NCBI GenBank assembly: GCA_046563655.1
Contig: CM102286.1
Location: 4,030,001 to 4,094,000, forward strand
Direction: 5' to 3'
Source of the DNA: Yuukianura sp. NJ FZ-2021
Taxonomy: Eukaryota
Length of the DNA: 64,000 nt
The notes below the pieces were generated by a model, which was not told where the DNA came from, made no database searches, and saw only the letters and a list, made by a program, of their open reading frames with translations. Position 1 is the stretch's first letter, and every line of letters begins with the position of its first letter. The position numbers and the translations under genes are program-made. This document shows, piece by piece, positions 2,083-47,047 of the stretch.

Positions 2083-3731
2083 TATTATACTAAAATTTTA
2101 AAAACAGTAAAATAATACTAAAAATTATATAAGCTAGCCCTAGTATTTGTCACAAATACTTCTGGACACCAGCTTTCTTTGAGTGTCGAACTTGTGCCAA
2201 TTTTGTTCTATACGCTGTCTTCGACGTCTCCACGTTATCTCAGAACACGCCAAGCGGATTTCGTCACTTTATTAACTAATCAGTGCCTTTGAAAAGTCAC
2301 TCCTCCTGACCCTTCACCTTGCCCTCAAGGTCATACTTTATCCTGCCCTAAAATGGCAATTTATATGTCGCTGTCCTCAAAAAAATTATTTGGCTCATGT
2401 TAACTCAAGCTTAGTTTCTTGAAAGTACGAAAGAATTCTTCCAGATACAGCCGCTGCCTCATCTACTAAAGCTTCGCTAAATACTCCTTTTAAACATCAA
2501 TTCCATCAATTCATGTTAATGGTTTAGTTGACATGAACTCCAGCTCATGGTTTTTCAACCGTGTCAATGTTTATCTGAGCAAGATTTCGCAACTGCTTCA
2601 TTTCCACTGATTTTTCCTTGTTAAACACTTTCAATGAGTAGAAATTATGACGAAAGCTTTAGTAATTATACTTAAAGAATAGTAATTAGCAGTATTTTAA
2701 AATATCCAACCTGAAAAATAGTTGTAGTTTGCAAATCTGCTAACACATCCTTTTTTGTTTGTAGCAAGCATATCAAAAACATATTTCATTTTTAAAAAGT
2801 TCTAAATAATAAAACGTTTCCTACAAACGGTTTTGAAATGCCTTGTGAAAGCTGTTTATGGAATGCTATTAACTTAGAACGGGAAATAAGAAATGGAACT
2901 AATTTTAAATTCTTAAGATTAAATGGCTTAAATTCTTATGCTAAGCTACTGCAACTACTATAACTCTTTTAGAATGTCATCCATTTTAAAAATGCATTAA
3001 ATTTCGCCGAATTGAATTGTACGCCGAAATCTCCGTGGTCATCTAAACTTTTATTATCATCATCGATTCTAAAACTAGATTCGTTGTAGTTGCTGAATAA
3101 ATTAATAACTGAACAGGATTAGTTGACAATTGATGTCAACTTTTGTTTCACCTGGCAGGTCACTTTTCATTTCAGAATGAAGAATCCGATTTTGCCCATA
3201 CATATGCGAAATGGGTTGGTAATGTGTGAGTAACTCCTTGTTGGACAAAGATATTTACGTTTGGATTTGAATGGTGATTTGATTACGTTACGTTTTCCAC
3301 TTGTGGTGACGGATAATTTCTTGTTTGAATTTGTTTACATTCTTCATTTAATCAGTCGCTAATCTTCCTACTGGAAGAGTAAAAGTTAATTCGTTCTTGC
3401 TTGATTCGAGAAGTATAGTGTAGTAATCCCAAAGTAAAGGGAAATTCGTTCGTGAATCGGGATTAAATATTGTCGAAGTTCAGTGGGGAAGCGGATTAGT
3501 TTAGGCTTTGGGAATGAACTCTGAGGTAGTAAAACGATTTAGAAAATTTAAAAATGCACATAATTTTTAAGCTTAAGTACAGTACAATGTTAATCTAATT
3601 CTAATGGTATAGACGAGCTTGACTTGACTCCGACTCCATGCACTGGAGAAGAGGTGTGGGAAACGACTGATTGTAAATTAATCTAAATTCATTTTTGGTA
3701 TTGTAGGTTTTCGTCTTTTTGGAGATCAAAA

Positions 3732-6700
3732 ATGCCAAAGGGCCGCAAGAAGGAGAACGGAAAGAATAACAAAAAGGAGGAAAAAAATCAACCCAAAATC
3801 ACAGAGTTCTTTAAACAAAGTCGCACAAGTCCGCAGACCGTAATGGACGTTGAGTCCGAACCGAAACGTGGCCGTCCCGTTCTCAGAGGACGCAGAAATC
3901 GTCGCCGTGAAGGGGAAGGAAATCCGCCTGGAATTGTTTTGGACGAAATTACTTTAGATTCGGATGATTCAGACGACAGTGGCTGTACGATGCGTCGAGA
4001 AAATGCATTGATACCAGAGCGCCGAAAAAGCGAAGAAGTCAAAAATAGTACAATTACTTCTTCTACTAGCGGTGTAGTTGATCTGTGCTCACCCAATCGA
4101 GCCCCGAACATGAAAAAATCTCTTGTGGTATCCGAAACCGAAACCGGTAATGACACTGACACTACTAGCTAAACTAAATACTCATTTTACAGTAAAACTA
4201 AAACTAAAATAAATCTAAACGTAACATAAAGAGTATATCTTTATATGACGTCAAAAACTAATTCGAAGAACTGGTTGGTGGACAGGTATTAGCTCTGAAG
4301 ATGAAGATAATTCCGCGAATCCGCAAATACTGAAAGACTCCACTCAACCGCTTTCAGCCCATTCGACCTCAGAGCAACCTACTTCAGCGGAACTAATTCC
4401 AGCCCAAGCTACTCCAGCACAATCGACTTCAGCGCAGCCCACTGTGTTTGCTGTTTTTGATACTTACGAGGAAGCTGCTAAACTGGCGAATACTTTGAAT
4501 AAGACCTATTGCGAATCAATTGCCTTGGAACAAGCAGAAGACCTGGATCCAGATCCATTCGACGATGATGCAAACGATGTATTGTCAAACGTGGATTTAG
4601 ATAAAATAAATGAATCTGCAGCAGTGTCTCCGTATCCAAACTCTACGCCCGTTAAATTAATTGGTCTATCACCAAGTAGCAGTAGTCCGTCACTACTCGA
4701 ATACTCAACCTCTCCTAATCGAATGTCTCCGAAAGCCAAAGTAACTCATCTCTCTCCTGTCCGTCACGCCAGAAAGTCTCCTAAGAAGAACCTCTTTAAG
4801 CTTCCGTTTCCAGCTCCACCAAGAGCACAACAAGCTCAATCACCGGAAGCCGCAGCAGCCAAAACTCCCGTCCAACACATACTCTCGCCGCGTAGCACAA
4901 TTTGCCCAGAACGGAAAGAAATTGAACTGATGGAAAATTTTCTGGAAATTCTCAAGTCCGTGATGTCGGGCAGTGAATTCAACCTATTCACAGCTTCAGA
5001 AGCATCCTTATGCCAAGACTTCCAGAAACTTTCTAAAGGAGCAATGTGTCTGTACTTACGATTGTACCAGAGAAGCCTCGTCTGGTACAGACAAAGCAAG
5101 ATCACCTACACATCCATTGCTGAAGATTTGGCGCCGCTTTTTGCAGAGTTAAATAAGGCTGGCTTTTTATCAGAATTGAAAGGTTTGTGTTATCATCAGT
5201 TGATTTTTAACAAACGTAAGCCAGTAACTGTAAATCTCTTGTTGCAATGACTTCTAGGGGAGCCAGTTTTTCCAAGCTTGGAAACCATGCTTAAGTTTTT
5301 GGACAAGGAAGAAATGAAGCTTTTAGGAAAAGACATGAACTTGAACTGTGCAGCACACAACCGTAAGGGCACTCTCATGACTGAACTACTGAAGATGACC
5401 AAGACACAACGAACGTTATCAAAAACAGATCTTTCTCTGGTTCTAACAAAAAAGTAAGCAACTTACTTTACAGAAATGCTAATACTGATTGTCAGAAAAG
5501 AAAAATTATTAATTTGATTTAGACTCCTGCATCGTCTGGGAAGCACTTTTAAAGTGTCAGACAAGTCCCGAAGTGTGTTTTCACGCGTATTTGTGTTGTA
5601 TTCACTTCCACGGTACTGGGAAGACGAAACGCAATTGGGACCAAACCATTTGCTTACCATGCAAAATGTGAGACAAGCGAAGATGGATTTCCCCATCTAT
5701 CGTATTTCTAAATCAAGAAAAATTTATCGGGACCACGACGATCTTGTTCGGTAACTTATTGCATATAACTCTGGGTGAATTTGAAATATTTGTTCTTTTT
5801 GAACTGTTGTGTTCTCTTTGAATAGATTCTGCGAAGGAATAGCTTTACACTCTCAAATTCAAGCCAGCATCGAAGCTAAAGACTGGGCAGCAGTTTCGTC
5901 AATTCTGCAAAATGTTTTGCACAAACTTTCAGCTGCCATCACTCCCGAGACAATCGAACACGATGAAAATCTACCTTCTTTTCTTCGTATTTACACAGCA
6001 GGAAGCGTACTGACAAGAGCCGCTTGGCTCGGCGTGGAAGCTTATCAAAAGTTGAAGCGATTTGAGGAAGCAAACAAAGTAGTTCGCCTTTTGTTGACTC
6101 AGCACTCGAAAATCTATTTGACACATTACCGTGGAAGATGGCACGAGAGGTTCATTCTAAATACGAAGCATTTGAAATCAACACTTGAAGAACTGAAGAA
6201 CGCTGTTATTCAAGCGCTTTCAGATAAATTTGTTCTGGAAAGCCATAGACTTAATTTTACTTCCCGGCTTCGAGGAATTCAACAACAAGAACGGAAGGCG
6301 AAAGCAGCTTCAAAGAAAAAACGACGACGACGGGTCATCGACAGTGATGAGGAGGATTTCGATAATTCTAGCACAACCGCTGAGGCTGAACCAATGGACC
6401 AAGATTTAAATGACGATGAAGAAATCAGATTGGCGTATCCAGATTTCCGTATTTTCGAATCAAGCCGACCGATTTCGGAGATAATTGTTGAGGCCGAACA
6501 GCTGAGATTGTAAGCTACAACTAAATTGTAAGTATCTGAAGCAAGCTTTCAAGAGTACTCATTTGTCGTTTTGGTTGTGAAGGGCTGGAGATGGTGAGCG
6601 GGTCTACGGCAAATCGTCGTTTTTAGGCAGAGGCGGTTCTACTCAAAGTATTTCTTCAGTAGAAGAACGGGCTCTTAGTATTTATGCAGAGCGCGGCTAC

Positions 6701-7515
6701 CACTGGGGTAAGTTTGTTTTAATTGATTACTGATTTGTTATGATTTTTTACCTGAAAGTTTGTATTTTAGGTGTTCATGCGGAAGGCTCAGTTCCAGTCA
6801 CTATTTTCGGTTTACTTTTTTGGGATATCATCTACATGGACCAAGACGTTACTGATGTATTTCGATGTCAATTCCAACCTTTTCCACTGGACTTGCATTT
6901 TGACGAGTTTTACATGCATCGTGAACAACTAATCCAGCAACGGTTGCATCAATTACGCTCTACGTGGTGTCTCAACGACGCTTTCCAAATTATGAAGGAC
7001 AACTGGACGAACAATCGCAATAAGCTTAGTGTGGTTAACTGGAACGTTTTTAACTCGTTCGATCAAGTGCAGGTTCGTCCTTTTAATGCACGGATTTTTC
7101 CTACGATGCTGAATTTCAATTGGTATTTTAAAAGTTTTTAGTTTTTAAAACATTTTTATTTTCCAGAGTTTGGTCAAAAGCATGGGGCTTGCTTTAGTTG
7201 CAAACATTACGGAACGTCTCGCCAGTAACTACAGGCATTATAACAGTGGGTTTCCCGATTTGGTGGTTTGGAATGACAAGGAATGCGTGTTCGTCGAAGT
7301 CAAGGGGCCTGGTGACAAGCTGTCCCCGAAGCAAGTGGTGTGGTTGGACTACCTAATGTCGATTGACGCCAAAGCGGAAGTGTGTCGAGTTAATTGTAAG
7401 TAACTATCTCGAGTTAAAACATATGACTGGAGAATTGCCTGACTTATACGTTATACCGTGTTCTCTTGAATTTTATTTAGCTGTTAGCAACAAACGAATC
7501 CGTCTGGAAAACTGA
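3732..7515 (+). CDS. FAN1: Fanconi-associated nuclease 1 (SAP-TPR-VRR_NUC), about 1036 aa
   Basis: Exons 3732-4146, 4286-5182, 5258-5453, 5523-5750, 5826-6509, 6583-6707, 6771-7072, 7167-7395, 7481-7515 total 3111 nt in frame. Motifs: LYLRLYQR..WYR, RGRWHER, SVEERAL..Y...GY.WGVHAEGS, FGLLFWDII, PFPLDL and the nuclease core SGFPDLVVW..VEVKGPGDKLSPKQ. The first intron boundaries are the least certain. Confidence 0.95.
4340..4443 (+). repeat. Degenerate 15-bp coding tandem repeat in FAN1 exon 2 (TSAQP-like pentapeptides)
   Basis: Units such as acttcagcggaacta, attccagcccaagct, actccagcacaatcg, acttcagcgcagccc encode TQPLSAHSTSEQPTSAELIPAQATPAQSTSAQP. Confidence 0.6.
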
Positions 7516-8117: not shown

Positions 8118-10491
<2,374 letters not shown>

Positions 10492-10554
10492 TGAGAAATT
10501 TCGTGTTTAGTCCTCTTGTTTGCATTAAATTTAAACTTGAACAATGGTTTAATT

Positions 10555-11638
10555 TTACTCTGATTTCTGCACTTTCTTTTTTTTCAAGTAAGCTACGAAG
10601 AAGAATTTGGCAAAGAGGGCAAAGTAGCTAGCGTACATGAGAAGAGCATAGTAGACATGGCTTGTTTCAGTGGAACATGAACGCCCAAAATATTTTGCAA
10701 GTAAGATGTACAAATTTACTCCAAGGCCGCCGACCATTTGGAGCAGTTGGAGTGCCGTGATGGACATCGCCAGGCGTTTTGGTATCTTTACTTGCATTGC
10801 CTTTAGGGAAAAACATACCAAGCATTTTCAAATTTACGACAATTTTTAGTATTCCTAACCACAATTTGAGTTATTCAAGTGTTCTGCGTACCTTAAGAGC
10901 ATAGTAGGAGTACATCAAGGAATGGACGCCATAGTTCATCACTCCAAACCAAACAGTTGAAGAATTGACAGCACTGGCGGTAAGCCAAACATAGCAGAGA
11001 ACAGTAACATGATGGTAGTAATGCAAGAAAATCAAAGGCTGCTTCCGGAGAACAATGAACAGCGTGTCACCAAGTTCAACAATTTTGCTCAATCCGAAAG
11101 CCGTACCCCAGAACATGGTGGCAGCATTTCGAGTATCGCTGAAATTTTCAAGACAAACAAAAATTTACATCTATTTAGTCCTCTTGTAGCTAATTGTGTC
11201 TTACGTTCTGCAGATTGTAGTGTAGAGACCATCGTCTTGACTCAAGTCAGTCAGAAATCCTGGAAGGCATCGTAGGAACCCAAGGATACTGAATACTGCC
11301 AGGCCAGTATTCCAGAAGAAAAGTGTTTTGCGGAGGTTGAATGGTGTGCGGTTTTTGAGAAGATGCTTGATTCCAAAAATTGTGAACAAGTAAACTACGC
11401 TGGCGATGACAGCGACATGCTCGTTGTCACCATGCCACTTGATCCAGAAGTTAAAATCAACTCGCTTTTCGATCTCCCAGATTTGCATGAAATCGGAGTC
11501 TCTGCTGACTCCATCTTTTGGATAAGACTCTAGTCCAGGTCTGTCCAGAATCCTGCTGGATCCATTTTCTGGAAAGCTGGATAGTACTGGTGATGATGTG
11601 ATGATGGTGGAATTGAGTGGTGCTTGAAGACACTCCAT
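10555..11638 (-). CDS. Very-long-chain fatty acid elongase (ELO/GNS1/SUR4 family, ELOVL6-like), about 308 aa
   Basis: Exons 11638-11205, 11138-10892, 10800-10555 (927 nt). SKIVELGDTLFIVLRK, histidine box FLHYYHH, MNYGVHSLMYSYY, ITALQLLQM, YASYFALFAKFF and a Lys-rich C-terminus KKKKVQKSE. The start is taken at the first in-frame ATG; an upstream exon is possible. Confidence 0.95.
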
Positions 11639-13007
11639 GTTGGCTGGCTTCTGCGCACTTCCAAAAAGATGGCTCAACCAAACCCTCAAAATTTCGACTG
11701 CGTCGGTTCTAAATTGAAGGAACTGGCTTTTATTGGAAGACAAGTCTAAGGTTAGAGTAAACCAAATTGGATTGACTTACGAGTCGTAAGTTACGACACT
11801 CCAGCACTAAACGCCCTCCAGCCTTGATTCTTATTAAACTTACTTGCTGCGGGAATGCAGTGGCGAAATTTTTGCTTTCCCACATCCTATAACAACTCAA
11901 TTCACACGGATGTAAGTTTCGTTGCCAAGGATTTATGGGGTAAGTTTTATTCAAAATTTTGCGAAACGATGCTTGAATTTCTTTTCAAACTTTATTATCC
12001 TGTTTTACTCAACTGCTTTGCCTTTTTAAATTGCTTTAGATTTGCGATTTTTTTTTACATTTACCAAATGAAAGAATTGAAGTGTAAGGTAGTAGAAAGT
12101 TTCACAACACGCCGGAATCAGGAAGCTAAATAAGTCAATTAACAACGCTTTTTTTTTCTAAATAAAAGGCTTCTTGGTAGAAGTTTTTTTTTACTTTGGC
12201 CAGTAAAATTGTTAAATTATTCAAGTAAAAATTTCCCCATAATTTCCATCACGTAACTAACTTCCAGCAATTGCGGAGTTCCGAATTTCGAAACTCTTCT
12301 TTTCTCACTCGTCTAAAATAATTTGAATGATTTCGTACAATTTAACATTTTTTTTACTTACTTTCCGGTGTGAGCAACAAAGTTCATGGTTATTTTTTAT
12401 CTTTGTTTTTTTCGCAATAATCGTTTAGACGTTGGGAATTGTTTCGACAAAGTTTTTTTTTGTACGGGTCAACGTAAGATTACTCGAATTAAATTTTTAT
12501 CTTAGCTACCATCTGCGAGAATTTTAGTGAGCAGGCACAGGCTATATTTTAAAGTAAAATTCATCACCAAACAACGGACGGAACTGTGAACTGGACGGAA
12601 CTGTGTAATGCCGTTTTTCATTAAGTTGGAAAGTTTTTTTCCTCAGGCTTTTCTGTTTAAAAGCGGTCATTATTCACGAATCAACTAAAATTTGACTTCA
12701 CGGTAACACAGCAGAATGGCAGATTTCAAATTGGACTTCTGCATTCCACAAGTTCGCTTTCTACCGTTTAAATCCAATGACTAAAAAACTCAGGATGACG
12801 CCTGTCAAAAGTAAAGTGACTAATATTTTATTCGAAATTGGGTACACGAACGTTATTGATATGCAAGTGTAAAAAGTCATTGCGCAAATGTAGGACATTC
12901 TTAAGGCAGCTAATTACATTGCATATTCAATCTTATTTACATTGCATATTCAATTTATAAATGTCATTCTTTCGTTGCATCCCAGAGTGAAAGTGAAGCC
13001 CTTACTG

Positions 13008-13462: not shown

Positions 13463-13941
13463 ACTTCTTTCGATTCAAACACAAAAAATTATTAAAGTTG
13501 ACGAATGAAGACGTGGCACAAAGACAAATGCATCTTTATTATAGCAACTTTTGCTCTGTCATTCAGTCTATAGCATATTGCACTGGAAGTTGATTTTAAA
13601 GTTTGGTAGATTTCAAAAAATTTCAAAATGTTTGGTAAAATATGGGTTGATAGACGGAAATACAAATTTCAATTCGTTGACATTGAAGGAAGAAGCAAGA
13701 TTTAAGTTGAAAGAAGCCTTTTAGCTGTATCTTTTGTAAAAATATTGTAAGCTCTTTTTTAAAAACACATTTTACACATTTTTTAAAATATCGCTTGTAA
13801 ATCAACGCAATACTTTCATTTCTAAGTTTATTTGGAAACATGTAGCACATTATTTGGAATTCCTTATTGCAGCATTTGGATAAAAAAATACTAGTTCCGG
13901 CACTTTTATGAAAAACCTGGCTTGATTTGAAGCTAACAAAC

Positions 13942-15228
13942 ATGGCTGATGTGGAGATGCAGAATCTGTCCAATCCGGCACAAGTACAACCTGGACAAGA
14001 ACAGGAAACGAATTCTAAAAAATATGAAGACTTCCATGACGGAATGTTCCTTTGGACCAAGGAGTTTAAAAATATGTACTTCTTGAAGATTCGATTCTTC
14101 ATCACTGCTTTGCTGTACACATCATACTTCCTAGTGTTCTTCATCCGGTGTAGCTCATGTTATGAAACAAAAGAAGGCATCATAACATTCTTCACCATGT
14201 TCGTCTACCTACTTCTGCGCTACTGGCATCTCAAATGTGAAGTCAACTACAAATGGTGTTCCTGTTGCACAAAAGGCTGCGGAACCTGTACATGTTCCAG
14301 AATGACTTCATTTATGCATATCCTTGTAACAGCCATTTTTTTGTGGATTGCTATGAGCGTGGCACGCCAGTTTGACTACGTGGAACCACCAATTGCTGGA
14401 TTCAAAACGTCATTTGAGTGTATTCGATACGAACAGTTCCTGCCTGCATTTATTCCTTGCAAGAATGTCTACGCATTTCCATTTTACTTGTTGGCGGTGG
14501 ACTTTCTGTTCAAAATGGTTCCAGCATCTTGGGATTTTAAAAGCGAGAGGGCATCTACATGCGGAAAAGTTCTGTCGTTCATCTTCAGCATCTTCTGTGT
14601 CTCAGCGTACGTCGGAATCATCTTCTGGATCATTTGGAACTGGATTTGGGACGATTACTACCTGGTCATAGTTACAGCAGCGCTACTTGCCACGCAGCTT
14701 TGGGGTTGCTATGCAACAGTAACTGGAAAATACTTGTTTGGCTACTGTTCTCTGGCTTTGACTTCAGTGCCTTTGCTTGCCATTACATCAATCGTTGCTC
14801 TGTCCTTTCATTACCAACAGAATTGCAAAGTTCCATTGGTCCATGAGGAATTCCTGTCTTCGCCGCCGCAATTTGGCTTTGCATTGGATTGGGAAATCTG
14901 GCTATTTGTTGCCACTGCTCAACTAATTCATGTCCTGCTGCTTGTGTTTGCTTCCTTACGACGATTAAAGAAGGAGGAGGTTAAGTGCCTCTTAAGGTGT
15001 TTCATGTGTTATTTTTTCCCGATTATTCTTGTGACTATTTGCGGCTACGTCGTAGCGGCCCAACCAATAGACCTATGCTGTAGAAAACGCCCCGAAAAAG
15101 TAAGAAGTGACAGAGAACTCTTGGAGAAACGGGTTAAAGAAGCAATGGATGCAAACAAACGGCGCGAACGAGAGGAAGACAGGCGAAAGGCATGTATAGA
15201 TGCACTGGCACGACAATCAGGACGTTAA
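13942..15228 (+). CDS. Intronless Cys-rich multipass membrane protein of unknown function, 428 aa
   Basis: 1287-nt ORF from a good-context ATG (aaacATGG) with about 9 hydrophobic segments, Cys clusters (CSCCTKGCGTCTC, DLCC) and a charged helical C-terminal tail; flanks are AT-rich. I recognise no family. Confidence 0.8.
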   Translation: MADVEMQNLSNPAQVQPGQEQETNSKKYEDFHDGMFLWTKEFKNMYFLKIRFFITALLYTSYFLVFFIRCSSCYETKEGIITFFTMFVYLLLRYWHLKCEVNYKWCSCCTKGCGTCTCSRMTSFMHILVTAIFLWIAMSVARQFDYVEPPIAGFKTSFECIRYEQFLPAFIPCKNVYAFPFYLLAVDFLFKMVPASWDFKSERASTCGKVLSFIFSIFCVSAYVGIIFWIIWNWIWDDYYLVIVTAALLATQLWGCYATVTGKYLFGYCSLALTSVPLLAITSIVALSFHYQQNCKVPLVHEEFLSSPPQFGFALDWEIWLFVATAQLIHVLLLVFASLRRLKKEEVKCLLRCFMCYFFPIILVTICGYVVAAQPIDLCCRKRPEKVRSDRELLEKRVKEAMDANKRREREEDRRKACIDALARQSGR

Positions 15229-21700: not shown

Positions 21701-23072
21701 GCATCAGACATGTTCATAATAATTACTGCTGAAGTTGTATCAAATCGCTTGTAACTAGTTTCCGTAACCCGTAAAATTGTACAACAAAAATAAGTTCAGA
21801 GGCTAGGCGTTGCAATTTCTGGAAATTTTCAAAGATTTTTAGGAAATCTAAGTTTAAAATCGACGTTTTATGGTTAAAGCTGTGCTGCTGAGTTTTAACT
21901 TTCTCCAGAATGCTTCAATTAAACTCTGCTTTGTACCCACAGGCGGAGAAAGTATTTACAAAGATTTACCAGCCGACTTAACAGCAAAACTTTTCTTGAG
22001 TTGAACTAGTTGAATTAAAAGTTTCAAAAGTTCAAACGTAATGGCTTTTGTTGTGCACAAACACTCTCAGTTTTAGTTTCATTTGGTCTGCAAAACTTAG
22101 TTCAACTTTAAAACAATAAACCACTGCCCTCTGTGTTGAAATTTGAAAATTTTAGCGGCTGTTACATTTTGCTTAGAATTATGCATGTTCGCATGTAGGA
22201 ATCACAACTTATTGGAGTTTGACAACAAATTCATTTGCTTCTCTAGAACAGATAACAACCATTTTTTCAACTAAGAACGAAGGTAAATGAAGTGGAACGG
22301 AAGAAGATCCGTTCCAGGAGATTTCTTTAAGTCTCAAGTTTGTGTAAAAAATTTTTAGTTTGAGTGCCTTTAGGAACGGTGTAGTAAGAAGAGTTGCTAA
22401 CAATTTATTCAGAACTTGAGAAAGCAGTTCTGCTGAACTTTCTGCTCGTAAGTCTTCCTTTTGACTCTGAACTAAAGCAATCCCTTGGGAAAATGAAAAG
22501 CTGACACCAACAGTTTCCACCGATATGACCAGACAGTCGCATCTCATCTGTTGAGGGGGATCTTAGCAACATGGTTTCTATCTGTCCAAATTCTCAATGT
22601 TTTTGGCATAAACCAAGAAATCTGCGAAGAACACAATTTTAAAAATGTTAAGGCAAATAAACTAAAACGTGGAAAAAAAATAAAAGAAAAATTTTGCCAT
22701 AAAATTACGCTATGCTGGTAGTATACAGGCCCTATTTTAACTTTATAAAAGTAGTTTCCGCTATTGCAAAAGAAGTGAAGCACATTGAAATAATTTAGCG
22801 TGAATTCCCTTTTTTTCTCTCAATTTTGAAATTACCAAAATTAATTTCAAATATAGCATTGACGGTTTAAAAAATCATGCCAGAGCCGGGCTCCGATACA
22901 AAAGAAAGGCGTTTCCTTAAGGTTTTACCAACTAGACGAATTTGGCAAACACGATTTAATAGACGAAAGTATTCTAATGTATTTTCAGACGCTCGTTTTA
23001 GTGGAATTCCAGACGAGGCGTAGCTGCCTAGCTTGAGTAGTTTTAGCGATTAGTTGAAACAGTACATTCAAA

Positions 23073-24443
23073 ATGTTGTCTGAAACATCTACGAAATATA
23101 TTTTGAAAACGTTCGATGCTGGATACTACTGGAAGGTCTACACCTTCAGCATTATATTAACGAAAACAGGCTACGTTGCAGTAAACACCCGAACCTTAGT
23201 CCGTAAGGTTTTTACTTTAGCATGTTTATGTATAAACGTAGGGCTCATTGGAGTATACTTCTACGGTGGAGCTCTATTACTGAAAACAGAAGGAATACAT
23301 CCAATACTTGTCGTAGTGGCGGGATTCATTGGATTGACGCTCTTGTTCATTGGCTTACAACTTTGGTACCTTCTGTACATGGACGATATATTTTACATAG
23401 TGTCAACATTTCTTCGATTTCACATCAAACTACGTAATTTCGAGAAACTTTAAATCAAATTCCGATTTATGCTAACATTTCAAACTTGAATGTTTTGAAT
23501 TTTTTTATACATAGGAAAACTTTACCGAGAACCAATACATTCCAAAGGACCCGATGGATATGAAAACGTCTCGAAATTTTCGAATTTAGCTTTAGCGTAT
23601 GCACGCGTGCTGGTGACTCCAGTGATACTAGGATGTTTCGTGGTTATCAAGAGCGATATCAGTGAGCTTGCTTACAAAACCATTGAAAGTATTCTGGAAG
23701 TTGTTTTTGCAACAACTTTGCCTCCATTGATGGTCTACCCTGCATTGGTAGCTGGAACTGTTCTGGGTTGTTTGGCTGCAATCAACGGTTCATTTGCTGT
23801 TTCTATGTTCATCAACTGCGCTCTAGTTTACGTGAACGCAACACGTTTATGGCTACGAAAGTTATGGTATGTTTTATATATTGCAATAGCTTATAATTGC
23901 AACATGTTATAATATGTGTGATCATGTTCGTATTACTTACATGATACATGATATGCATATACCTATTTTTTTAGCATTGATAATGAGAACACTGAAACCA
24001 TAAGCGAACAAAATGGAAATATTTATGCATGCCATCAAGTCATGAACGCCATGACCAATGAAATGTTTGCCGGAGTCGTAGAACTTGCTATGTACGTTTC
24101 AGAATGTGTTGTCGTAGCTTTTATGGTCTGTTGTTTCAAATTCTATGCTGCTAAGTATATCATCTTAACACAGCAGCTTATCGCTATTGGATTCATTATT
24201 GCGTATGTCCTGAAGGGATTGATGCGCATGGCTATACTTTGCCACACTACATCTACAAATTGTATTAGAATTAGCAAAAGTTTATGCAGAACCAGCAGCT
24301 ACAGTGGCAAATTTTGGAACTCCAGAAGGCCGATCAGTCTACATGTCGGGACGCACTTTATTTTGGACACCAACGAGTACATCCTCAACGTATTCGGAAG
24401 AATAATTTTGGAAAATTTTATCCTCATCGTTCTAGCATTTTAG
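23073..24443 (+). CDS. Divergent chemoreceptor-like multipass protein (GR/OR superfamily), 393 aa
   Basis: Exons 23073-23433, 23515-23866, 23975-24443 (1182 nt; intron phases 1 and 2). About 7 hydrophobic segments; C-terminus RPISLHVGTHFILD..ILNVFGRIILENFILIVLAF fits the GR/OR TM7 region. Confidence 0.75.
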
Positions 24444-25463: not shown

Positions 25464-26700
25464 CATTAAATGTTTGCAGTGAATAGATGAATTTTTTGCA
25501 AAATACGCTTGGGAAAAGTTGTGGCTGGAGCTACAGGGACACTGGAAGTGGCAGTGGCTTGATCAATTCGAAATTCCTACCAACTACTTTAGTTTAAAAG
25601 TTATTTCATGAAGGGTTTTCGAGATGCATTTGACATTAAATAACTTTCTCTTTCCTAATGTTTCTAAAGTAGAGTTTGACAAAATGGGGCCAAAGTGGTT
25701 GTGGAAGTTGGGAATGCGTTTGGGTAACGCTTTGCCATGAATTCCAACGAAAGTTTCAGAGACAATGTGACCGGAATTGAGCAGGACATCCAGCACATGA
25801 CTTCCATTCCTTTTAAATGACTCGGGAAATGATGAAATTAGAGTTTGCAGAAACTCATTTCTAGGAAAGCTTAAGTCGTTAGGGAATGAACGAGGTCAAA
25901 AATGAGGTTTTGTGACAATTATCTCCGGAGTTCACTGCGGAAACCCTAAAACTGCTTAGTTAGAAACAAAATTTTGTTCTTTTTAGGTCAATCTGAATTC
26001 CTAAACCTAAAAATTGTACTGGAATTTTTTTCTAGCACAAAGGTAGAACCAATCCGGAAAAATTTACAATCAAAACAATTTTTAAAACACCTTTTTTAAA
26101 CTCTAAATATTTTATACACGTTAAGAGTAGGCTTCAAGGACATTACTTGCCAATCAAAAAAAAAGCCTTCCATGTAGTTCCAATTGACTTGAATTGTTAA
26201 TACAATTTTTAATCTTTAATTAAGATTAGCAACGGGAGCAGTAAATTAGAATCATAGACGGCAAGGTGATTTAGAGTTAATCAAGACCCCATAAATTCCT
26301 ATCCTCTTTTACGCGTTCCTTTCCAAAACAGAGCTTAATTTTTTAATGTTTTTGATTTTTTTTTGAAACCGTGATGACATATATACGCTTTCGTTTTTTA
26401 TATTTTCGCCTTGAGCGTTAATAAACGATTTAAAAATACGTTTGCTTGCGCCTTTAATTCATCACCTTCACGTGTTTAATTTTCTACCACGCACTCAGAA
26501 TTATTGAGTTCCATAAAAACCGTGAAATGCATAAATTTAATCACCTCATTTTCACCTCCAGTTCGAGTTTCATTAAAAACTTTGAATTTTTAATTTTAAA
26601 AAGGCTTTTTTTGATACATATAAGTCCAGCATTGTTTGAGGACGCGTTTTGATTCGTTTCCAGAAGGCTTGCTAAAATTGCTGCTATTTAATCCCTTAGA

Positions 26701-28125
26701 ATGCTTGGGAAAAAATCGTTCAAAATCATCAACGCTTTGATTCGCGTCGGAAATATTTTGAAGTTGACAACATTCCGATGGGATTCGACAGAGTACATGC
26801 TGACGACAGAAGATCCTGTGACCGATATATTTGGATTGGTCAAGATCAAGCGCCTAGGATTCAAACTAGTCAACTTGTTGACCTTAGTCGCAATGACCTT
26901 TGGAATATTTCGTACAATCAAGGCACACGTTGTCTACGGAATGTCATTTCAGGATGTTATGTTCCAAGTTTTTATTTCCAGTGTTTATTCTCTGGGGTGC
27001 ATTGTATCTCTCTGTAATATGCTAAAACTTGACGCACTTGCAAATTTTTACAGCCTATTCATCAGATACGAAAAGAAACTCACAGGTTAGACGCTTAGCG
27101 GCAATCTTAACTTCCATTTATGTTAAAACGAACTTTGTACTTTTTAAAACCTGGGTAACTTTCCAAGGAGACTTTTGTGCCGTTCCATTCTAGCATTGCT
27201 CAATATATCTAAATTTCAGATTTGCATCAAATCCGACCAGTACGGGACAGAGCCCTTCCACTGATGATCTTCTTTCTGTTTCTGGCGTTATGCGAACTTC
27301 CGGCTCTTATGATTTTGTATTCTGCAAATTTTAACAAACCTGTATATTTGGGTTCCCTGCGATCCTACATCCCACGGGAGTACAAGGTCATCCGAATCTT
27401 AGCCTTCACTTTCTTTTTTCTAGTCGAAGCATGGGAAATGGCCGCAGTCGTTTTCAATTGTCTTCTCTATGCTTTTGTTTTTATTATTATGCTTCAATCA
27501 GGAAGATTTTGGATTGAAGAATTGAAGTAAGTCATAAAAACTGCTTCCATAATGTCAAATTGATAATAATAATAAGACATGGCAATAAATTTTTATGTCC
27601 AGGCCAACGGAAAGTTCAGACGAAAAAAGAGTCACTGATGAACAGCTACGCAATCCGGCGTCAATGGAATCTTGCTACCGATGTTGGCAACTGATTTTCG
27701 TTATGGTCAATCACGTGCCGGATATTGCACTTTGCGGGCAGCACTTTTTGGTGGCACTGCTGCTAATACTTTGTGCTTTTTCTACAATTGAATTCTGGGG
27801 AATGCATAACCTTGAATCCATTCCAGCCTTTATTTCATACGGCATTTTTCCCGGTGGTACGGCGATATTTTTTATTTGGATTTTGATGATACAACCGCAG
27901 GCAGCCGACATTCAAAATGCAACGCAGGAGCTAAAAATTCATTGGCGGAGGCATTTGCGCTTGAATCGAATAGCGGAAGGCAGAGGGTCAAAAGAAAATT
28001 TTATTTTGTCATGTCGTGACATTTTGGTGTATATTGGTCCGTTCTTTAGTTACAAAACGTCAACAATGCCACAAGTACAGGATGAATGTGTCGACAAAAC
28101 AATCACGCTTCTTTTGGGCTTGTAA
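26701..28125 (+). CDS. Divergent chemoreceptor-like multipass protein (GR/OR superfamily), 404 aa
   Basis: Exons 26701-27085, 27220-27526, 27603-28125 (1215 nt; intron phases 1 and 2, as in the 23073 gene). About 7 hydrophobic segments; C-terminus SCRDILVYIGPFFSYKTSTMPQVQDECVDKTITLLLGL. Confidence 0.75.
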
Positions 28126-33297: not shown

Positions 33298-36200
33298 TTA
33301 GAAAATGAATTCAGGGTTAACCCCTGTAAGGACACTTGAAATGACTTGCAGCAGAATAATTCCAATAAGTCCTAAAATACAAAATGAAAAACTGCTTTAA
33401 AATTTTAGTTTTTATCATGCATGCTTTGAAGGTTTTAATAATTTTGTATCTGGTGAATTACGAATTTTTGCAGCAGCAGTTTTGAGATGTGACGAGTTTT
33501 TACCAAGTCTTCGCTCATGCCGGTGCGTCACATTGTTGCAAAAACTGAACATGGCCAGGAAACCCGTAGAGTCAAAAACCGAATTTGACCTAAAGGTCAC
33601 GCGAAAAAACTTTCCAGAGGATTGAATTTGAAAAGATTTCAAATTTCCGCATGTCCTTTGGTAATTGGAGTCTGCCCGCATGTAATTTGAAAATTCGACA
33701 TAATCCGATGCCGTTGTCTCGTCACAACTATACGAACCGGAATCAAAAATGAACCAACATTCAACATTTAATATTTCAGCTAAGCATAAACTGCAGGTTT
33801 TCAAAAAAACTTTCTCCAGCCACAACTCCAATTTCAAAAAAATTCAAAAACAAAACAGAAATAATGGGGGTAATGTTGATGATGTATACTTACGGATGGG
33901 AGCCCTGGAGGTTGAATTCCTTGAACTCAATGTCTACATGTTCAGAGTCCTGTCCGTAGAAGAAGTAATGACATTCCGTATCCCTGGGATAAGGACCCGG
34001 ATGGTTTGGACTACTAAAAGTTCCGTTGGGACTTCCGCTACTGTTGAAGACAAATGCGCATGGGTAGTCCTTCAGTTGACGTCCCACTTGAACCCCAAAG
34101 TCTGAAAAAGTGGAAAATTTCATTTCGGTTGCCCTGCGGTTCCTGTCGGTTTTCACGAAATTTTGGAAATGTCATCATGTCAGGAGAGCACTTGACATGC
34201 TAAGCTACCTTGAACAAAGAAGTAGTGAGCACTAAAGCCTCGACTGCTCCGTGACGACTTTGGTGCGTTGAACTCCAGAGTTAAACGATGTCCATTTGAC
34301 ATCAGAGACAACGGGGTATTGATTCCGCAAAATTCTTCTAATTTGGCCAACTCTCCTTTGGAATGAGCAAATACCGAAAGCGTATCTTCTCCATTGCAAC
34401 TTAAAAAAAAAAATTTCAAAAAAATTAAAAAAAAAATCACTTCATTGACACGAGTTTTTACTTTGACAGACTTTCACTTTTCTCTCAAATCCTATTTATA
34501 TTTTTGAAAGGGAATTCAATTACTTCTTTTGGGTTTTGTCGGAGACGAAAAAGTTCAAATCCGTAAAGAAGATTTGGACGCGTTCTCTGCCGTGCCCAAT
34601 GAACGTGTAAGTGCATTGTGTTTTTGGTGGATACGGATGTGGATAATTGGGTGACATGAAAGTTCCGTTCCGGCCGCCGTCGCTTGTGACAACTTGAGAG
34701 CACCGTGGAACCGCTGCTAGAGTAACAAAACACTTTCATTAACACCCTCAAAGCCTCTCTAGCTTTCTCCGAAAAGTTCCAAATTGATTTTCCCGCCGGA
34801 ACTGAAACTCTTACTCAAAGTGGATGCTTGTGTGAGCCCATCTTGCTGCCCACTGTTCGGGATGAGTGAATCTAGAGTGAAAGGAAAACAAGCGGAGTAG
34901 CAAATAATCAACCCTCCAGATTATAATCATTAGTCTCTATAAAAGTCTTCATGGGAACATTAGTAGCCTAGGAACCTAGCATAATCTAAAAGTATACATA
35001 ATGTAGCAAATGAGGCCAGAGGAAACACAATAACTTAATGGGCTAGTGAAAACTAGCGGGAAAATTTGAAGCCTTTAAGTACAGAAACGTAATGTTTGGA
35101 TTAAATACCAAAGATAAACTGCGGCGGTGCTGGTAGAGTGCTAGTGGGATGCTGGTTCTCTTCTTGGAAATTGTCGAATTGGATTTTGACAAAATGAAAG
35201 GACGCTTTGAAGCCCGTGTTTGGATGTTCTGAATTTGCCATGAATTCAACCAGAAGATCAGATCCAGTCGACAGAACCTGTGGTTGATGGGACACAAAGG
35301 CTTAACGTTGTACAGTAATGTGTTTCGTAAGCTTTTCACTAAAAAGAAATGGTGGAATTAAAGGCTAGTCTCAGCTCACTTCCAAGCCGCCTCGTAGGTC
35401 GTTACAGATGAGAGAGATCACAGTCGATGTCGTCGGAGATGAGCCATCCAGAACACGAATCACATCAGTCTTGTTCAAACAACTTAAACAAGAAAAATCT
35501 AGTGGAATTAGAGCATTTGGGGAAAGCATTGGAGAAAATCACGCTCGTTTGAATTTAAGTGTTCTGAATACTGTTCAAAGCACCGCCAAAAACACACTTT
35601 GAAACTAAATTTTCATGATACCTTGAATCCCAGGGTTGTAGATCAACAGTTTCAAAATTTATCTTCACTCGTTCGTGTAAACTACACAAAATGTCAAAAA
35701 ACATGAAGTGAAATGATGTTGTTGGAAAAGTTTGTTTGAGAAAGTTGAGTTTAAAATTTGAAAAAAGTTTGGAAACTTTTGCAAATTGAGTGTTGTCAGT
35801 TGGGTTTACCTGGCATGAAAAAAGTAGGAGCACTTAACGTTGTGCGGGTAGTTTGACGGGTAGTTTGGTGAGAAAAAGTGGCCATTTGAAGGAGTGTCGT
35901 TTGCATGCTGGAACTGATAGTCACATTTTGTACCAGGAACAAGTCGACCGTTAGATTCAAATTGACCTAGGTAAGAAAAATGAAGTTTTTTGAAAAAAAC
36001 TCCGTTTTTTAACAAAAAATTGTCCTAACTTACTTGGCATTAACCGAAACGTTGCTCCTAACTAATTTTCCGTGAGAATTTAACGCGAATTTTTCCTAAA
36101 ATGTAGTCAGCGATTTGTTGCATGCGTATTAGTTTGAACAATTTCTAGGCTTTACGTAAACGTAACATATTTTTGTAATGAGAATGTTTACACAAAAAAA

Positions 36201-44273: not shown

Positions 44274-47047
44274 ATGCTTCGAACACGCAAGAAAGACATC
44301 AACCTCAAGCCCAATAGAATCTTAGACAAAAGATCCAGTAGAGGAATGCTGTACGAAAATGAGGAACTTCGACTTCGAACAATCCACATTAATGATGAGG
44401 TATAGATCAAGGTTTTTCTTAGTTTAGAATAGTTTTTGAGAAAAGTTTTCATTAGGATTGTCGTAAATCTTGTGTTGTTTGAACAAAGGTGGACAAGGGA
44501 CAAAACAGTATCAAGAAACTGAAGAAGGAGAACGACCAACTGAAGCGAGAAATTTGGGCGCTGAGAGACGAATGTGAAAAGTTGGAGAGAATGTTAAAGA
44601 AAGTTTACAAGGCCGTTGAGGATAGTGGGACTTTGGAAGGACTCAAACTTTCCCCAGATACGCGGAATTCAATGCTCGACTTTCCCGTTTTTCGGAGAAC
44701 CGGTAGACTATATCGACGGGGAAGTGTATTCACTGAGGCTGAGTCAATGGGGGAATCATGTGATGAAGATGGAGAAGAAAGTATCCGAAAGCGGGTAGAT
44801 TCAAGTGCGTCTAGAGACACCTTTCACCAAACAAATGAACCAGAAGGAGGTGAAAGCAGTCAGGTCAACTTGTCTGAACTTGCTTGTTGTCCATTTGACC
44901 CTGCCTGTTGTGAAAGTGTACCTGAGCAAATGACAATTTCTGAAGCCGAACCAGTTTCTGCCGTCCAGGTTTCAGCCGTGGCTGAAATGCCAACGCCTGT
45001 TTCCGCGTCTCCTCCGCTGATGACGCCGACAATAGAAATCACGCCTGCGCCGTTCCCAGTAAATGAAGATGGCAATGACCAAGATTCCGGTTCCATTCCA
45101 GTTGAAAATGAATTTGTTGTTGAAGCGACAGTTGAACCTGACCAAGGTGAAGGTTCAGAAGATGCGATAGATTTGAGTGGTAAGAGAGACAACGATAGTC
45201 CAGGTAAATTCTTTACTCTATTATATTAGATTTTGAAAGTAATTTTAAAATTTGGAGTTTTTTTTTAAATTTGAATTCTTAAGCCAGATTTTGTTTTCAG
45301 AGACACTCCAGCGTCGTAGGGTGTCGGCGGGAAAGTGTGCGGGACTTTTGAAAACGTTTGACTTTCTCTCCGGCTCAAAGTCCGTTCCTAACCTTACCAT
45401 TACGGAAGACGTAACTTGTGATTTTCAAGAACAAGGTTTTAGCAGACAAGAAGTCGTTTGTGAATGGGATCCAAATGTGTTAATTGGTTACATTGAAACT
45501 GGAAATGGAGTTAGTGGAAAAAGTAATACAAAAATAACTGACTTCAGAGTGGAAGAATTGATTGACCAATTGGATATCGAGCTAGGATCTGATGGCCTAT
45601 CACAAGTCAAAAGTGTTCGACTCATGGGATCCAATATTCCTGGAACTCTTTTTGTTTCCTTCCGATCTTCAGAAGCATTCATGCCATTGGTAGAGAAAGG
45701 AATCATGGAGTTGCGCAATGGAAACATTCGGATAAGGCTGCTGGAAGCTTCCAAGAAATGCTCCCTGGTGCATTTGTTTTCGTTACCTTCGCAAATACCA
45801 GATTGTGATGTGATTAGAGTGTTAAATCAGTTTGGACAAGTAGTGGCTCCAGTGGAACGGAATTGTTATAAAGGTGTGGACATTTCGGAACGATTAGTGC
45901 GCATGTACTTGTGTAAAAAAGTGCCACAGAGTTTGAATATTGGAGGATATGAATGTCCTGCAAAAATTTCATCCCTTGGTCAAGTGTTACCACTTTCTCC
46001 AAAAATTGATTCTCCGGCAATTGCTACTGCTGATCAATTTTTTGCGGGAAAGTCGACAATACAATTTCGGTTCAACCAATCGCCGGTATCTTCCAAACAA
46101 GTGGCGCAACGCTTAGGTGGGGCCTCCAGACCCACCTTTTTGCCAACTCTCATTCCAGCCAACGCAAGGTTTTGATTTCACAATCTTTCACGCCGGAAAA
46201 ATGACTGTTTTGCAAACACCAAAACAGAGAAACACCGCTTTTTTTCTCATCACGAGCGTTTCCTTAAAAAACTTTCACTTTTTAAAATTTGAAGTGAAAA
46301 TGCAATCAAGTGCCTTTCATTAATTGCAAAATTCTTTGTTTTGTCTTGCTTTAAATTAATTCATCGCTGAGATGATGCCTCCATTGTACAAAATCCCTTT
46401 AGCCGCCGTTTTTATTTCATTTCGGAATTTTGAAAAACAAAGCCTGGTTGAAAACTGCCCAGACTCTTTTCTTCTACATTACAAAAATTCCCGTTTCTTT
46501 ACATTTTTTACTTTAATTGTCGCACATCATCTTTTTCACTTTAAAATGAAATGTCTTGTCGGTTTCAGCGAAATTGAATCAATTTTGTAGCTGAGCGGTT
46601 GGAACGGATTGTGAAAGATTGTGAAGACAGTAATTGTATTTAAGTGGAAGTGACAAGAGAACGCCATGTCCCTGCTTAGCCACTACTCCCTTGACCATTG
46701 CTGTGGGTGACACTGAAGGGTCCTCTCGAGGTCGAGCTACGACCTTACCAAGCCACCAACGCTCTACACCCACCACAACCACAACTCCGCCTGCCGCAGA
46801 AGTGTCGTTCTACAGAAGTCTTTCATCTGGCCATGACACTCGACGTCGTTCTTCTGCAGCCAGATTCCATCTAACTGGTCACATGAGAGGGGACTCAGAG
46901 GACGACTTCCAGGAAAATGATGACAGTGAGAATCGATCTCACACTAGTAATGTACGGCGGCCGTCGTCAACCAGACTCCAAAGTCAGCGTCTGGGCTCCA
47001 AAAAACACCTTCCATGGTTCTCATGTCTCGGCAATGGCTGTCTCTAA
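44274..47047 (+). CDS. Uncharacterised protein: coiled coil, acidic linker, LINE-ORF1/ZCCHC3-like RRM region and Cys-containing C-terminal tail, about 703 aa
   Basis: Exons 44274-44399, 44489-45203, 45301-46168, 46645-47047 total 2112 nt in frame. Coiled coil LYENEELRLRTIHINDEVDKGQNSIKKLKKENDQLKREIWALRDECEKLE; domain VHLFSLPSQIPDCDVIRVLNQFGQV..YKGVDISERLVRMYL..VPQSLNIGG; ends LPWFSCLGNGCL. The start could lie further upstream. Confidence 0.75.

Follow-up and report, generated by a model that had tools for sequence, protein, structure and literature searches.

How does a module that resembles part of a retrotransposon protein come to be encoded in the middle of a spliced gene? The question is raised by an 868-nt exon (45301-46168, + strand) in a stretch of 64,000 nt from Yuukianura sp. 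NJ FZ-2021 (contig CM102286.1, positions 4,030,001 to 4,094,000; 38% G+C, without N). The whole of this stretch is called the window below, and the exon is the third of four in our gene model. A first-pass annotation, made from the letters alone, had taken exon 3 for a co-opted RNA-binding module from the first open reading frame (ORF) protein, ORF1, of a long interspersed nuclear element (LINE). The module is of the RNA recognition motif (RRM) type. We consider it likely that a type-I ORF1 RRM pair was captured anciently and now forms part of a host protein, which may tether or scaffold RNA or ribonucleoproteins (RNPs).

Kinship of the exon 3 product to LINE ORF1 proteins

The product of exon 3 was searched with phmmer against 1.84 billion representative proteins at a cut-off of E<=1e-3. 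Sorted by host-versus-ORF1 hidden Markov model (HMM) score and by end motifs, the 49 matches comprised 42 host-type proteins, six members of an ORF1-like family and a single spurious entry. With 48 of the 49 being genuine relatives, the similarity of the exon to database proteins is far beyond chance. The spurious entry, P0046, was rejected as a relative: it aligns in only eight short stretches and is assigned to fucosidase/cystatin by Pfam. E-values of the six ORF1-like matches range from 4.5e-5 to 9.4e-4. In five of them (P0037, P0043, P0044, P0047, P0050) a Pfam zf-CCHC domain directly follows the aligned region, and each of these proteins has two C-x2-C-x4-H-x4-C patterns; the sixth, P0045, is without such a pattern. 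With 126 clusters at E<=1e-3 the ORF1-like family is multicopy; its named members come from the corals Desmophyllum and Acropora.

The relationship is seen more clearly between profiles. An alignment of 27 host-only domain sequences (the host alignment) was compared by hhalign with a 26-member ORF1-only alignment, in which 25 members match Pfam zf-CCHC and 10 match RRM_1 (best E 1.3e-5). The two matched over 149 columns with a probability of 97.8% (E 1.1e-12). The match starts at the first strand of the first RRM-like lobe and ends at a G-[YF]-x-C strand directly adjoining the knuckle. Invariant columns coincide: host P113, G129 and R148 fall on P95, G111 and R132 of ORF1, and host P159 on the near-invariant ORF1 P143. 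The identity of the exon to ORF1s is about 23-24%.

A scan of metagenome contigs for relatives of the ORF1 family yielded 38 loci. In L019, ORF1 is directly followed by a 1186-aa ORF2 with Exo_endo_phos, RVT_1 and zf-RVT domains. In L022, an ORF1 with zf-CCHC precedes an endonuclease ORF2 (Exo_endo_phos), and L025 and L038 are similar. The host-only HMM, run against 602 ORFs, detects the ORF1s of L019 (E 3.9e-11) and L022 (E 2.9e-7). In the other direction, the ORF1-only HMM gives 47 bits on the host protein P0002 and 35 bits on P0003, and tblastn places the L019 ORF1 on the window at 45642-45956 (E 6e-5). The related domain begins within about 10-20 residues of the N-terminus in the matching ORF1s. 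As a separate observation on the metagenome loci (L002:2-2197 and L011:2935-3714), one of them has a Transposase_21 (tnp2) ORF with an ORF1-like gene downstream of it, and another contains an additional ORF with CCHC; mobile elements of different kinds appear to be nested around the ORF1 family there.

Pfam recognised no family in exon 3, in its sub-regions or in the tail exon, even at E<=10. The host alignment was used to fold a 196-residue stretch of the window with AlphaFold2. The model has a mean predicted local distance difference test score of 86.8, a predicted template modelling (TM) score of 0.76 and two lobes. The first lobe (45477-45746, +; model residues 10-99) has the order strand-helix-strand-strand-helix-strand-strand. 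The second (45762-45974, +; model residues 105-175) holds the best-conserved motifs, SLPSQIPD, NQFGQV, YKGVDISERLVR and VPQSLNIGGYEC. Foldseek returned 111 matches in PDB at E<=1e-3, headed by the tandem-RRM proteins HuR, FIR, hnRNP A1 UP1, HuC and Sxl; over the whole model the TM-scores stay low (about 0.3), as the packing of the lobes differs. When the lobes were compared with 48,161 chains by VIA-align, each separately matched RRMs. Lobe 1 (model 3-102) reached Z 8.0-8.6 to RRMs such as those of TRMT2A, U2AF65 RRM1 and PABPN1, and lobe 2 (model 103-186) Z 9.2 to the second RNA-binding domain (RBD) of musashi1 and Z 9.1 to an RRM of RBM12 (2.0 A over 71 residues). VIA-align Z values of 7-8 are common, so that the weight of this comparison comes from the coverage of whole domains and from a uniform list, all 50 rows of which are RRM domains or RRM-containing chains. 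A chain of L1 ORF1p is not among the Foldseek and VIA-align matches listed, which has no bearing on kinship.

A modelled coral ORF1 is confident over residues 1-160 and has the strand and helix order of the host model in both lobes. In both models, moreover, the second helix of the second lobe is not assigned by DSSP. On the evidence of these models the module is two tandem, non-canonical RRM folds, at about 45477-45974. The first-pass annotation had placed an RRM in the region encoded by 45543-45967 and had proposed modelling by AlphaFold followed by Foldseek. That check gave a confident model and an RRM-type fold as foreseen, but the extent and the number of domains needed correction, as there are two RRMs over a somewhat longer region.

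Sequence searches of PDB gave little. The single protein found no match, and the host profile found weak matches to the RNP2 region of RRMs (E about 0.4-1) together with a flagellin-hook repeat artefact. With the ORF1 profile the matches were retroviral nucleocapsid knuckles and weak RRMs, and included neither ZCCHC3 nor a type-I ORF1 structure. RRM_1 (PF00076) had no match at E<=1 in the exon and the 27 orthologue domains. It might be argued, then, that the exon is RRM-like in a generic way or by convergence, and has no specific kinship to LINE ORF1: it belongs to no Pfam family, its identity to ORF1s is only that given above, and the profile matches to cellular RRMs in PDB are about equally weak. 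However, ordinary cellular RRM proteins were absent from the 49 matches drawn from 1.84 billion proteins, which turned up the ORF1-like family instead; this speaks against a generic RRM likeness. Equally, the profile match extends over both lobes with coinciding invariant residues, the HMMs match in both directions, and the unusual second lobe is common to host and ORF1 models. Generic likeness is thus largely refuted, and we hold it to be very improbable.

The exon is, on these sequence comparisons, very probably homologous to LINE ORF1 proteins. Type-I ORF1s, as Khazina and Weichenrieder classify them (passages of PMC4120745), have one or two RRMs immediately upstream of CCHC knuckles. The same passages report this arrangement for the clades I, Jockey, R1, Tad1, plant L1 and L2, and state that ORF1s evolve by domain shuffling and that type-I RRMs of different clades are alike in structure and not in sequence. 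The specific relationship to LINE ORF1 that was first suspected from the pattern is therefore upheld by phmmer, by hhalign and by the host-only HMM on ORF1s that adjoin endonuclease/reverse transcriptase ORF2s. The accompanying suggestion of a 'coiled coil plus RRM' ORF1p architecture has to be given up. The matching ORF1s are of type I, and the leucine zipper encoded by exon 2 is retained in holometabolan orthologues without RRMs, so it is host-derived and not an ORF1 coiled coil.

Exon 3 within a conserved pancrustacean gene

Is the exon part of a host gene, or does it belong to an element? The 868-nt exon stands where it was first placed, with AG/GT borders and no internal stop, and every peptide quoted from it was found. 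Its acceptor side is pyrimidine-rich (ttttcAG, with AG at 45299-45300), and GT follows at 46169-46170. Translation of 45303-46168 gives 288 residues with no stop; these are the full codons of the exon, which has a split codon at each end and contains the whole tandem-RRM module. The stop-to-stop frame around it counts 308 codons (45249-46175). The junctions to both neighbouring exons are in frame by phase, as had also been claimed. Exon 2 ends in phase 1, and at 45203/45301 a GAG codon arises from 45203 (g) and 45301-45302 (ag); at 46168/46645 an AGT codon arises from 46167-46168 (ag) and 46645 (t).

The resulting four-exon model (44274-44399, 44489-45203, 45301-46168 and 46645-47047, all +) has introns of 89, 97 and 476 nt, all of them GT-AG. 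Its coding sequence of 2112 nt contains only one stop, the terminal one, and encodes 703 aa. Exon 1 (44274-44399) opens with the ATG and the codons of a conserved basic motif at the N-terminus (MLRTRKKDINLKPNRILDKRSSRGMLYENEELRLRTIHINDE), and has its GT donor at 44400. Exon 2 (44489-45203; AG at 44487-44488, GT at 45204) encodes a four-heptad leucine zipper, with leucines at aa 53, 60, 67 and 74, and then an acidic linker rich in Ser, Glu, Asp and Pro. Pfam matches in exon 2 are sub-threshold only and belong to 20 families, mostly coiled-coil or leucine-zipper models. The double-RRM domain takes up aa 337-618 of the 703-aa model. Exon 4 (46645-47047) encodes a tail rich in Ser, Thr and Arg, then the C-terminal cysteine motif LPWFSCLGNGCL (47009-47044, +), for which the family consensus is LPWCGCWGNGC-x at the extreme end, and the stop codon (47045-47047). 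From collinearity with orthologues we infer that these exons are joined by splicing.

The 703-aa protein is collinear with orthologues of a springtail, a cockroach, a water flea, copepods and bugs. Long host-type proteins have about 600-1400 aa and share an N-terminus with a leucine zipper, the domain in mid-protein and an invariant C-terminal end; in the window model N-terminus, domain and C-terminal end are all present and in the same order. The N-terminal consensus of the family reads M-L-R-x-R-K-K-D ... K-P-N-R-x-L-D-K-R-S-S-R-G-M-L-Y-E-N-E-E-L-R, followed by the zipper. The first 81 residues of the model share 60-79% identity with 12 orthologues that have a complete N-terminus, in a comparison that included springtail, Daphnia, cockroach, beetle, lacewing, butterfly and fly. 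A query with the first 110 residues of the cockroach sequence retrieved 250 proteins at E<=1e-3. Among the 120 of these that were listed, the named ones are from hexapods and Daphnia pulex; they go under 'uncharacterized', 'hypothetical' or automatically assigned composition-type names, and all of them are without a precomputed Pfam domain. No gene name from Drosophila melanogaster occurs among the cluster members listed (15 of the 33 in the largest cluster), which bear automatic names of other Drosophila species only. Members of the family include Orchesella dallaii CAL8125613.1, Periplaneta americana XP_069694424.1 and Daphnia pulex LOC124195637, and a profile search brought in nine further aphids as well as the copepods Lepeophtheirus and Tigriopus. 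Exon 3 is thus a coding exon of a conserved pancrustacean gene, which bears uncharacterized or automatic names in the named records listed.

The nearest relatives of the window sequence are two proteins of 59% and 62% identity, followed by springtail-like sequences. To the nearest relative the domain is 68% identical and the whole exon 59%, a difference that indicates constraint on the domain. A loose cysteine motif lies in the last 30 residues of 200 of 205 family members, and 149 of the 205 end exactly in PWCGCWGNGC-x. This terminal motif (L-P-W-C-G-C-W-G-N-G-C-x) is near-invariant from copepods to flies, matches no Pfam family, and we recognised no counterpart to it. One member, P0065 (Nilaparvata lugens LOC111056432), has tandem matches to the domain model, a partial one at residues 360-460 and a full one at 468-611, which suggests either a partial duplication within the protein or an artefact of annotation.

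Parts of an element were sought around the exon, and, as the first-pass annotation had stated, neither an ORF2 nor a knuckle nor a poly(A) tail is near it. A LINE endonuclease-reverse transcriptase ORF2, compared by tblastn with the window, reached a best E of only 3.5. The pattern C-x2-C-x4-H-x4-C occurs nowhere in the six frames of the 64 kb, there are no A or T runs of at least 12 between 40 and 52 kb, and exon 3 is present in a single copy in the window. A CCHC-like pattern was met in one of the 205 family members, P0163, and was rejected as a relic knuckle, as it sits in an unrelated Cys-rich stretch of a domain-less fly protein. Since its flanks are host exons and element parts are missing, the exon is not an ORF1 of an element; its place within a spliced, conserved host gene, with splicing deduced from collinearity, agrees with the original description.

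The exon could still be a decayed or recent retroelement fragment that lies in an intron or beside the gene and does not enter its mRNA. Against this, full-length proteins of many taxa have the same order of N-terminus, domain and C-terminus, among them the annotated proteins of Orchesella, Periplaneta and Daphnia, and entries of Tigriopus and Lepeophtheirus contain the domain as well. The open frame of 308 codons, the phases that fit both neighbouring exons, the constraint on the domain and the absence of knuckle, ORF2 and A-tail all argue in the same direction. We judge such a fragment to be even less probable than generic likeness and hardly credible.

Phylogenetic distribution and direction of transfer

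If the exon is related to LINE ORF1s and belongs to a host gene, which of the two came first? A tree was built from 129 domain sequences, 57 from host proteins and 72 from ORF1s. The ORF1 set consisted of every third coral protein, ten named or original proteins, and all ORF1-like ORFs of the metagenome loci that cover at least 70% of the domain model; the remaining coral proteins and locus ORFs were left out. The 57 host rows stand on one side of a branch and the 72 ORF1 rows on the other, with a Shimodaira-Hasegawa-like approximate likelihood ratio test (SH-aLRT) support of 76. A branch with support 97 holds the 57 host rows and one long-branched ORF1. The window sequence groups with P0002 and P0003 (support 99). 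The topology of these sequences fits a single origin of the host module followed by vertical descent.

The distribution of the module within the gene family is uneven. Scanned with the HMM of the host alignment, 48 of 143 family members have the module, four have a negligible score and 91 are without it. Named proteins with the module come from copepods, Daphnia, springtail, mayfly, cockroach, termite, stick insect and Hemiptera. Named proteins without it are all from Holometabola (Hymenoptera, Coleoptera, Lepidoptera, Trichoptera and Diptera), apart from one louse entry that is possible contamination according to its source; two of the 91 module-less members are fragments, and the score of Neuroptera is negligible. 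The named holometabolan orthologues keep the N-terminal motif, the zipper and the C-terminal cysteine motif and bear no trace of the double RRM. The module may for this reason have gone unnoticed in Drosophila. On the simplest reading of the pattern, it would have been gained before crustaceans and hexapods split and lost once, near the base of Holometabola.

In the scenario that we favour, a host gene would once have captured the RRM part of a LINE ORF1, without knuckles or ORF2, at a time when copepods, branchiopods and hexapods had not yet separated. The module would then have been inherited vertically under constraint and later lost in Holometabola. That the exon originated by domestication from a LINE is, in our estimate, reasonably probable, if a little less so than the explanation as a whole. 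Capture from a LINE is preferred because the plan of RRMs followed by knuckles is described in passages of PMC4120745 from a far wider range of clades than the host gene, because the host gene is confined to Pancrustacea among the named matches listed, because homology stops exactly at the knuckle boundary and because the module lies in one exon in the window.

The same kinship, with a common ancestor of host domain and ORF1s, can be read in reverse or with no direction assigned: the tandem RRM would be an old cellular module, of this gene or of a more ancient animal gene, that a LINE lineage picked up and placed before knuckles. The exon would in that case not be a domesticated part of a transposon. 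This would agree with the domain shuffling known in ORF1s and with type-I RRMs that resemble each other between clades in structure but not in sequence (passages of PMC4120745). It would also agree with a host clade that is not nested in the sampled ORF1s and with nearest ORF1s that come from another phylum. Yet a coral LINE would need to have acquired the domain across phyla from a gene met only in Pancrustacea among the named matches listed. The type-I plan, moreover, is reported from I, Jockey and R1 to Tad1, plant L1 and L2 elements (PMC4120745, in part), far more widely than this arthropod gene. An alignment that ends at the knuckle-abutting strand is what a truncated ORF1 would give, and the confinement of the module to a single exon in the window points the same way. 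We regard a reverse or unassigned direction as rather improbable, but much less so than a generic likeness or a stray fragment.

Several observations weigh against ancient capture of an RNA-binding ORF1 module and have to be set beside the evidence in its favour. Instead of nesting among the sampled ORF1s, the host clade is their sister, so that the tree gives no direction of transfer, and the support of the separating branch is moderate (76). The closest ORF1 relatives found are from corals and not from arthropods. The absence from Holometabola was seen in predicted proteins, where an unannotated alternative exon could be missed. The Pfam models for RRM, ZCCHC3-RBD and Transposase_22 are all without a match in the window even at E<=10. 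Canonical RRMs carry aromatic residues in their RNP1 and RNP2 motifs. The host consensus strands V-x-x-L-x-G-V-P-H and G-E-R-x-V-R, in the host alignment inspected by eye, are without these canonical aromatics, and since they are not evident there, RNA binding is not assured. A last caution comes from Lyosin, likewise an exon of ORF1 origin, whose native RNA binding is presumed lost in passages of PMC12129022.

Elsewhere in the window, the larger neighbouring ORFs belong to ordinary genes and match FAN1, pyridine-nucleotide disulphide oxidoreductase, fatty-acid elongase (ELO) and CUB domains. A multi-exon FAN1-like gene lies at 3687-7141 (+); ORFs 4249-5250 and 5803-6513 hold its FAN1 HTH and TPR domains. 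Next, at 8858-10494 (+), come exons of a pyridine-nucleotide disulphide oxidoreductase (Pyr_redox_2, Pyr_redox, Pyr_redox_dim); we take this gene to resemble dihydrolipoamide dehydrogenase. An exon with an ELO domain is found at 11201-11776 (-) and one with a weak CUB match (E 2.8e-4) at 33415-33843 (-). Three regions have no Pfam match at E<=1e-3: a 438-codon frame rich in hydrophobic stretches (13912-15228, +) and two groups of adjoining frames of 131-178 codons with a membrane-spanning look (23058-24443, + and 26692-28125, +). By their appearance, these frames might be divergent receptor-type genes.

Proposed function and comparison with known systems

What could such a protein do? We infer RNA binding, lipidation and chain pairing of the host protein and propose, tentatively and with the odds somewhat against it, that the 703-aa protein works as a tether. 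The N-terminal basic motif and the four-heptad leucine zipper would pair chains, and the long disordered linkers would serve as spacers. The ORF1-derived double RRM would hold an RNP or single-stranded RNA. S-acylation of the invariant C-terminal cysteine motif, if it occurs, would anchor the complex to a membrane or the cell cortex. The module was earlier thought to be possibly membrane-tethered. In the sense of a transmembrane helix this idea fails, as no segment of the 703-aa model is hydrophobic enough (the highest 19-residue hydropathy mean is just 0.94); any membrane tether would accordingly need the conserved terminal cysteines, presumably by S-acylation. Alternatively, the protein might act as a decoy or trap for LINE RNPs, a role that passages of PMC12129022 discuss for L1TD1 and Lyosin.

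Reported fusions of LINE ORF1 with host genes are few and all of the vertebrate L1 type, namely L1TD1, Lyosin and three others, as far as passages of PMC12129022 go. A full-text literature search found no arthropod or type-I example of an ORF1 fusion, though word searches can miss one. We rate as new the occurrence of a type-I double RRM in an internal host exon, in invertebrates and at an age much greater than that of known cases. If the reading is true, ORF1 co-option reaches invertebrates and the class of ORF1s with RRMs and knuckles, and its age goes back to the base of Pancrustacea. A predicted RNA-binding module would also be the first clue to the function of an arthropod gene that is widely conserved but has neither an informative name nor a Pfam domain in the named records listed, and the pattern of presence and absence across Pancrustacea offers a natural comparison for the role of the module. 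More speculative, and in our view doubtful in its full form, is the picture of the oldest LINE ORF1 domestication yet seen and first type-I host fusion, in a lipid-anchored, zipper-paired tether that localises RNPs or traps LINE RNPs and whose module was dropped by Holometabola.

With type-I LINE ORF1s the exon shares two tandem RRM folds, and it is homologous to them in sequence across both lobes, as far as the strand before the first knuckle. It differs from them in having no CCHC knuckle, ORF2 or A-tail, in its single copy in the window and in its place in mid-protein of a host gene, between a leucine zipper and a tail with a cysteine motif. The L1-type ORF1p (a Transposase_22 coiled coil, a single RRM and the CTD, a C-terminal domain) had no Pfam match at E<=10, and the module has two RRMs; the ORF1s related to the exon have knuckles and not a CTD.

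ZCCHC3, to which the exon had also been likened, has two RNA-binding domains (PF23057, PF23058) followed by knuckles, which is, by Pfam names, the plan of the ORF1 family related to the exon. The exon itself is without knuckles and matches neither Pfam model, even at E<=10 in the window. Signals in favour of the proposed kinship are sub-threshold: PF23058 is matched by two of the 27 orthologue domains, with a best E of 0.0072 that lies below the curated level, and language-model rows of the ESM Atlas, to be taken as leads only, give ZCCHC3 RBD at 0.83-0.84. These rows also give PRE_C2HC (0.86), DUF4780 (0.86) and zf-CCHC clusters. The link of the exon to ZCCHC3 is thus weak. ZCCHC3 is called 'gag-like' in PMC10351740, the passages searched of which do not mention an ORF1 origin.

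L1TD1 is a stand-alone eutherian gene derived from L1 ORF1 (passages of PMC4161310 and PMC11014241). On our reading it shares LINE ORF1 descent with the host module described here, but it is neither a fusion nor of type I. Closer in arrangement are the vertebrate host genes with an exonised L1 ORF1, Lyosin (MYL4), L1-RFX5, NUP42-L1 and USP4-L1, described in passages of PMC12129022. As there, a LINE ORF1-derived RRM lies in one host-gene exon, is under constraint and has been lost in some lineages, whereas the vertebrate cases described there derive from type-II L1 ORF1 (a coiled coil and one RRM, with or without a CTD) and the exon in the window encodes a type-I double RRM. The exon in the window differs further in being an internal exon, represented in the full-length proteins of its orthologues and common to copepods, Daphnia and hexapods. 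Sharing of the module by copepods, Daphnia and hexapods implies an event much older than the vertebrate L1 fusions.

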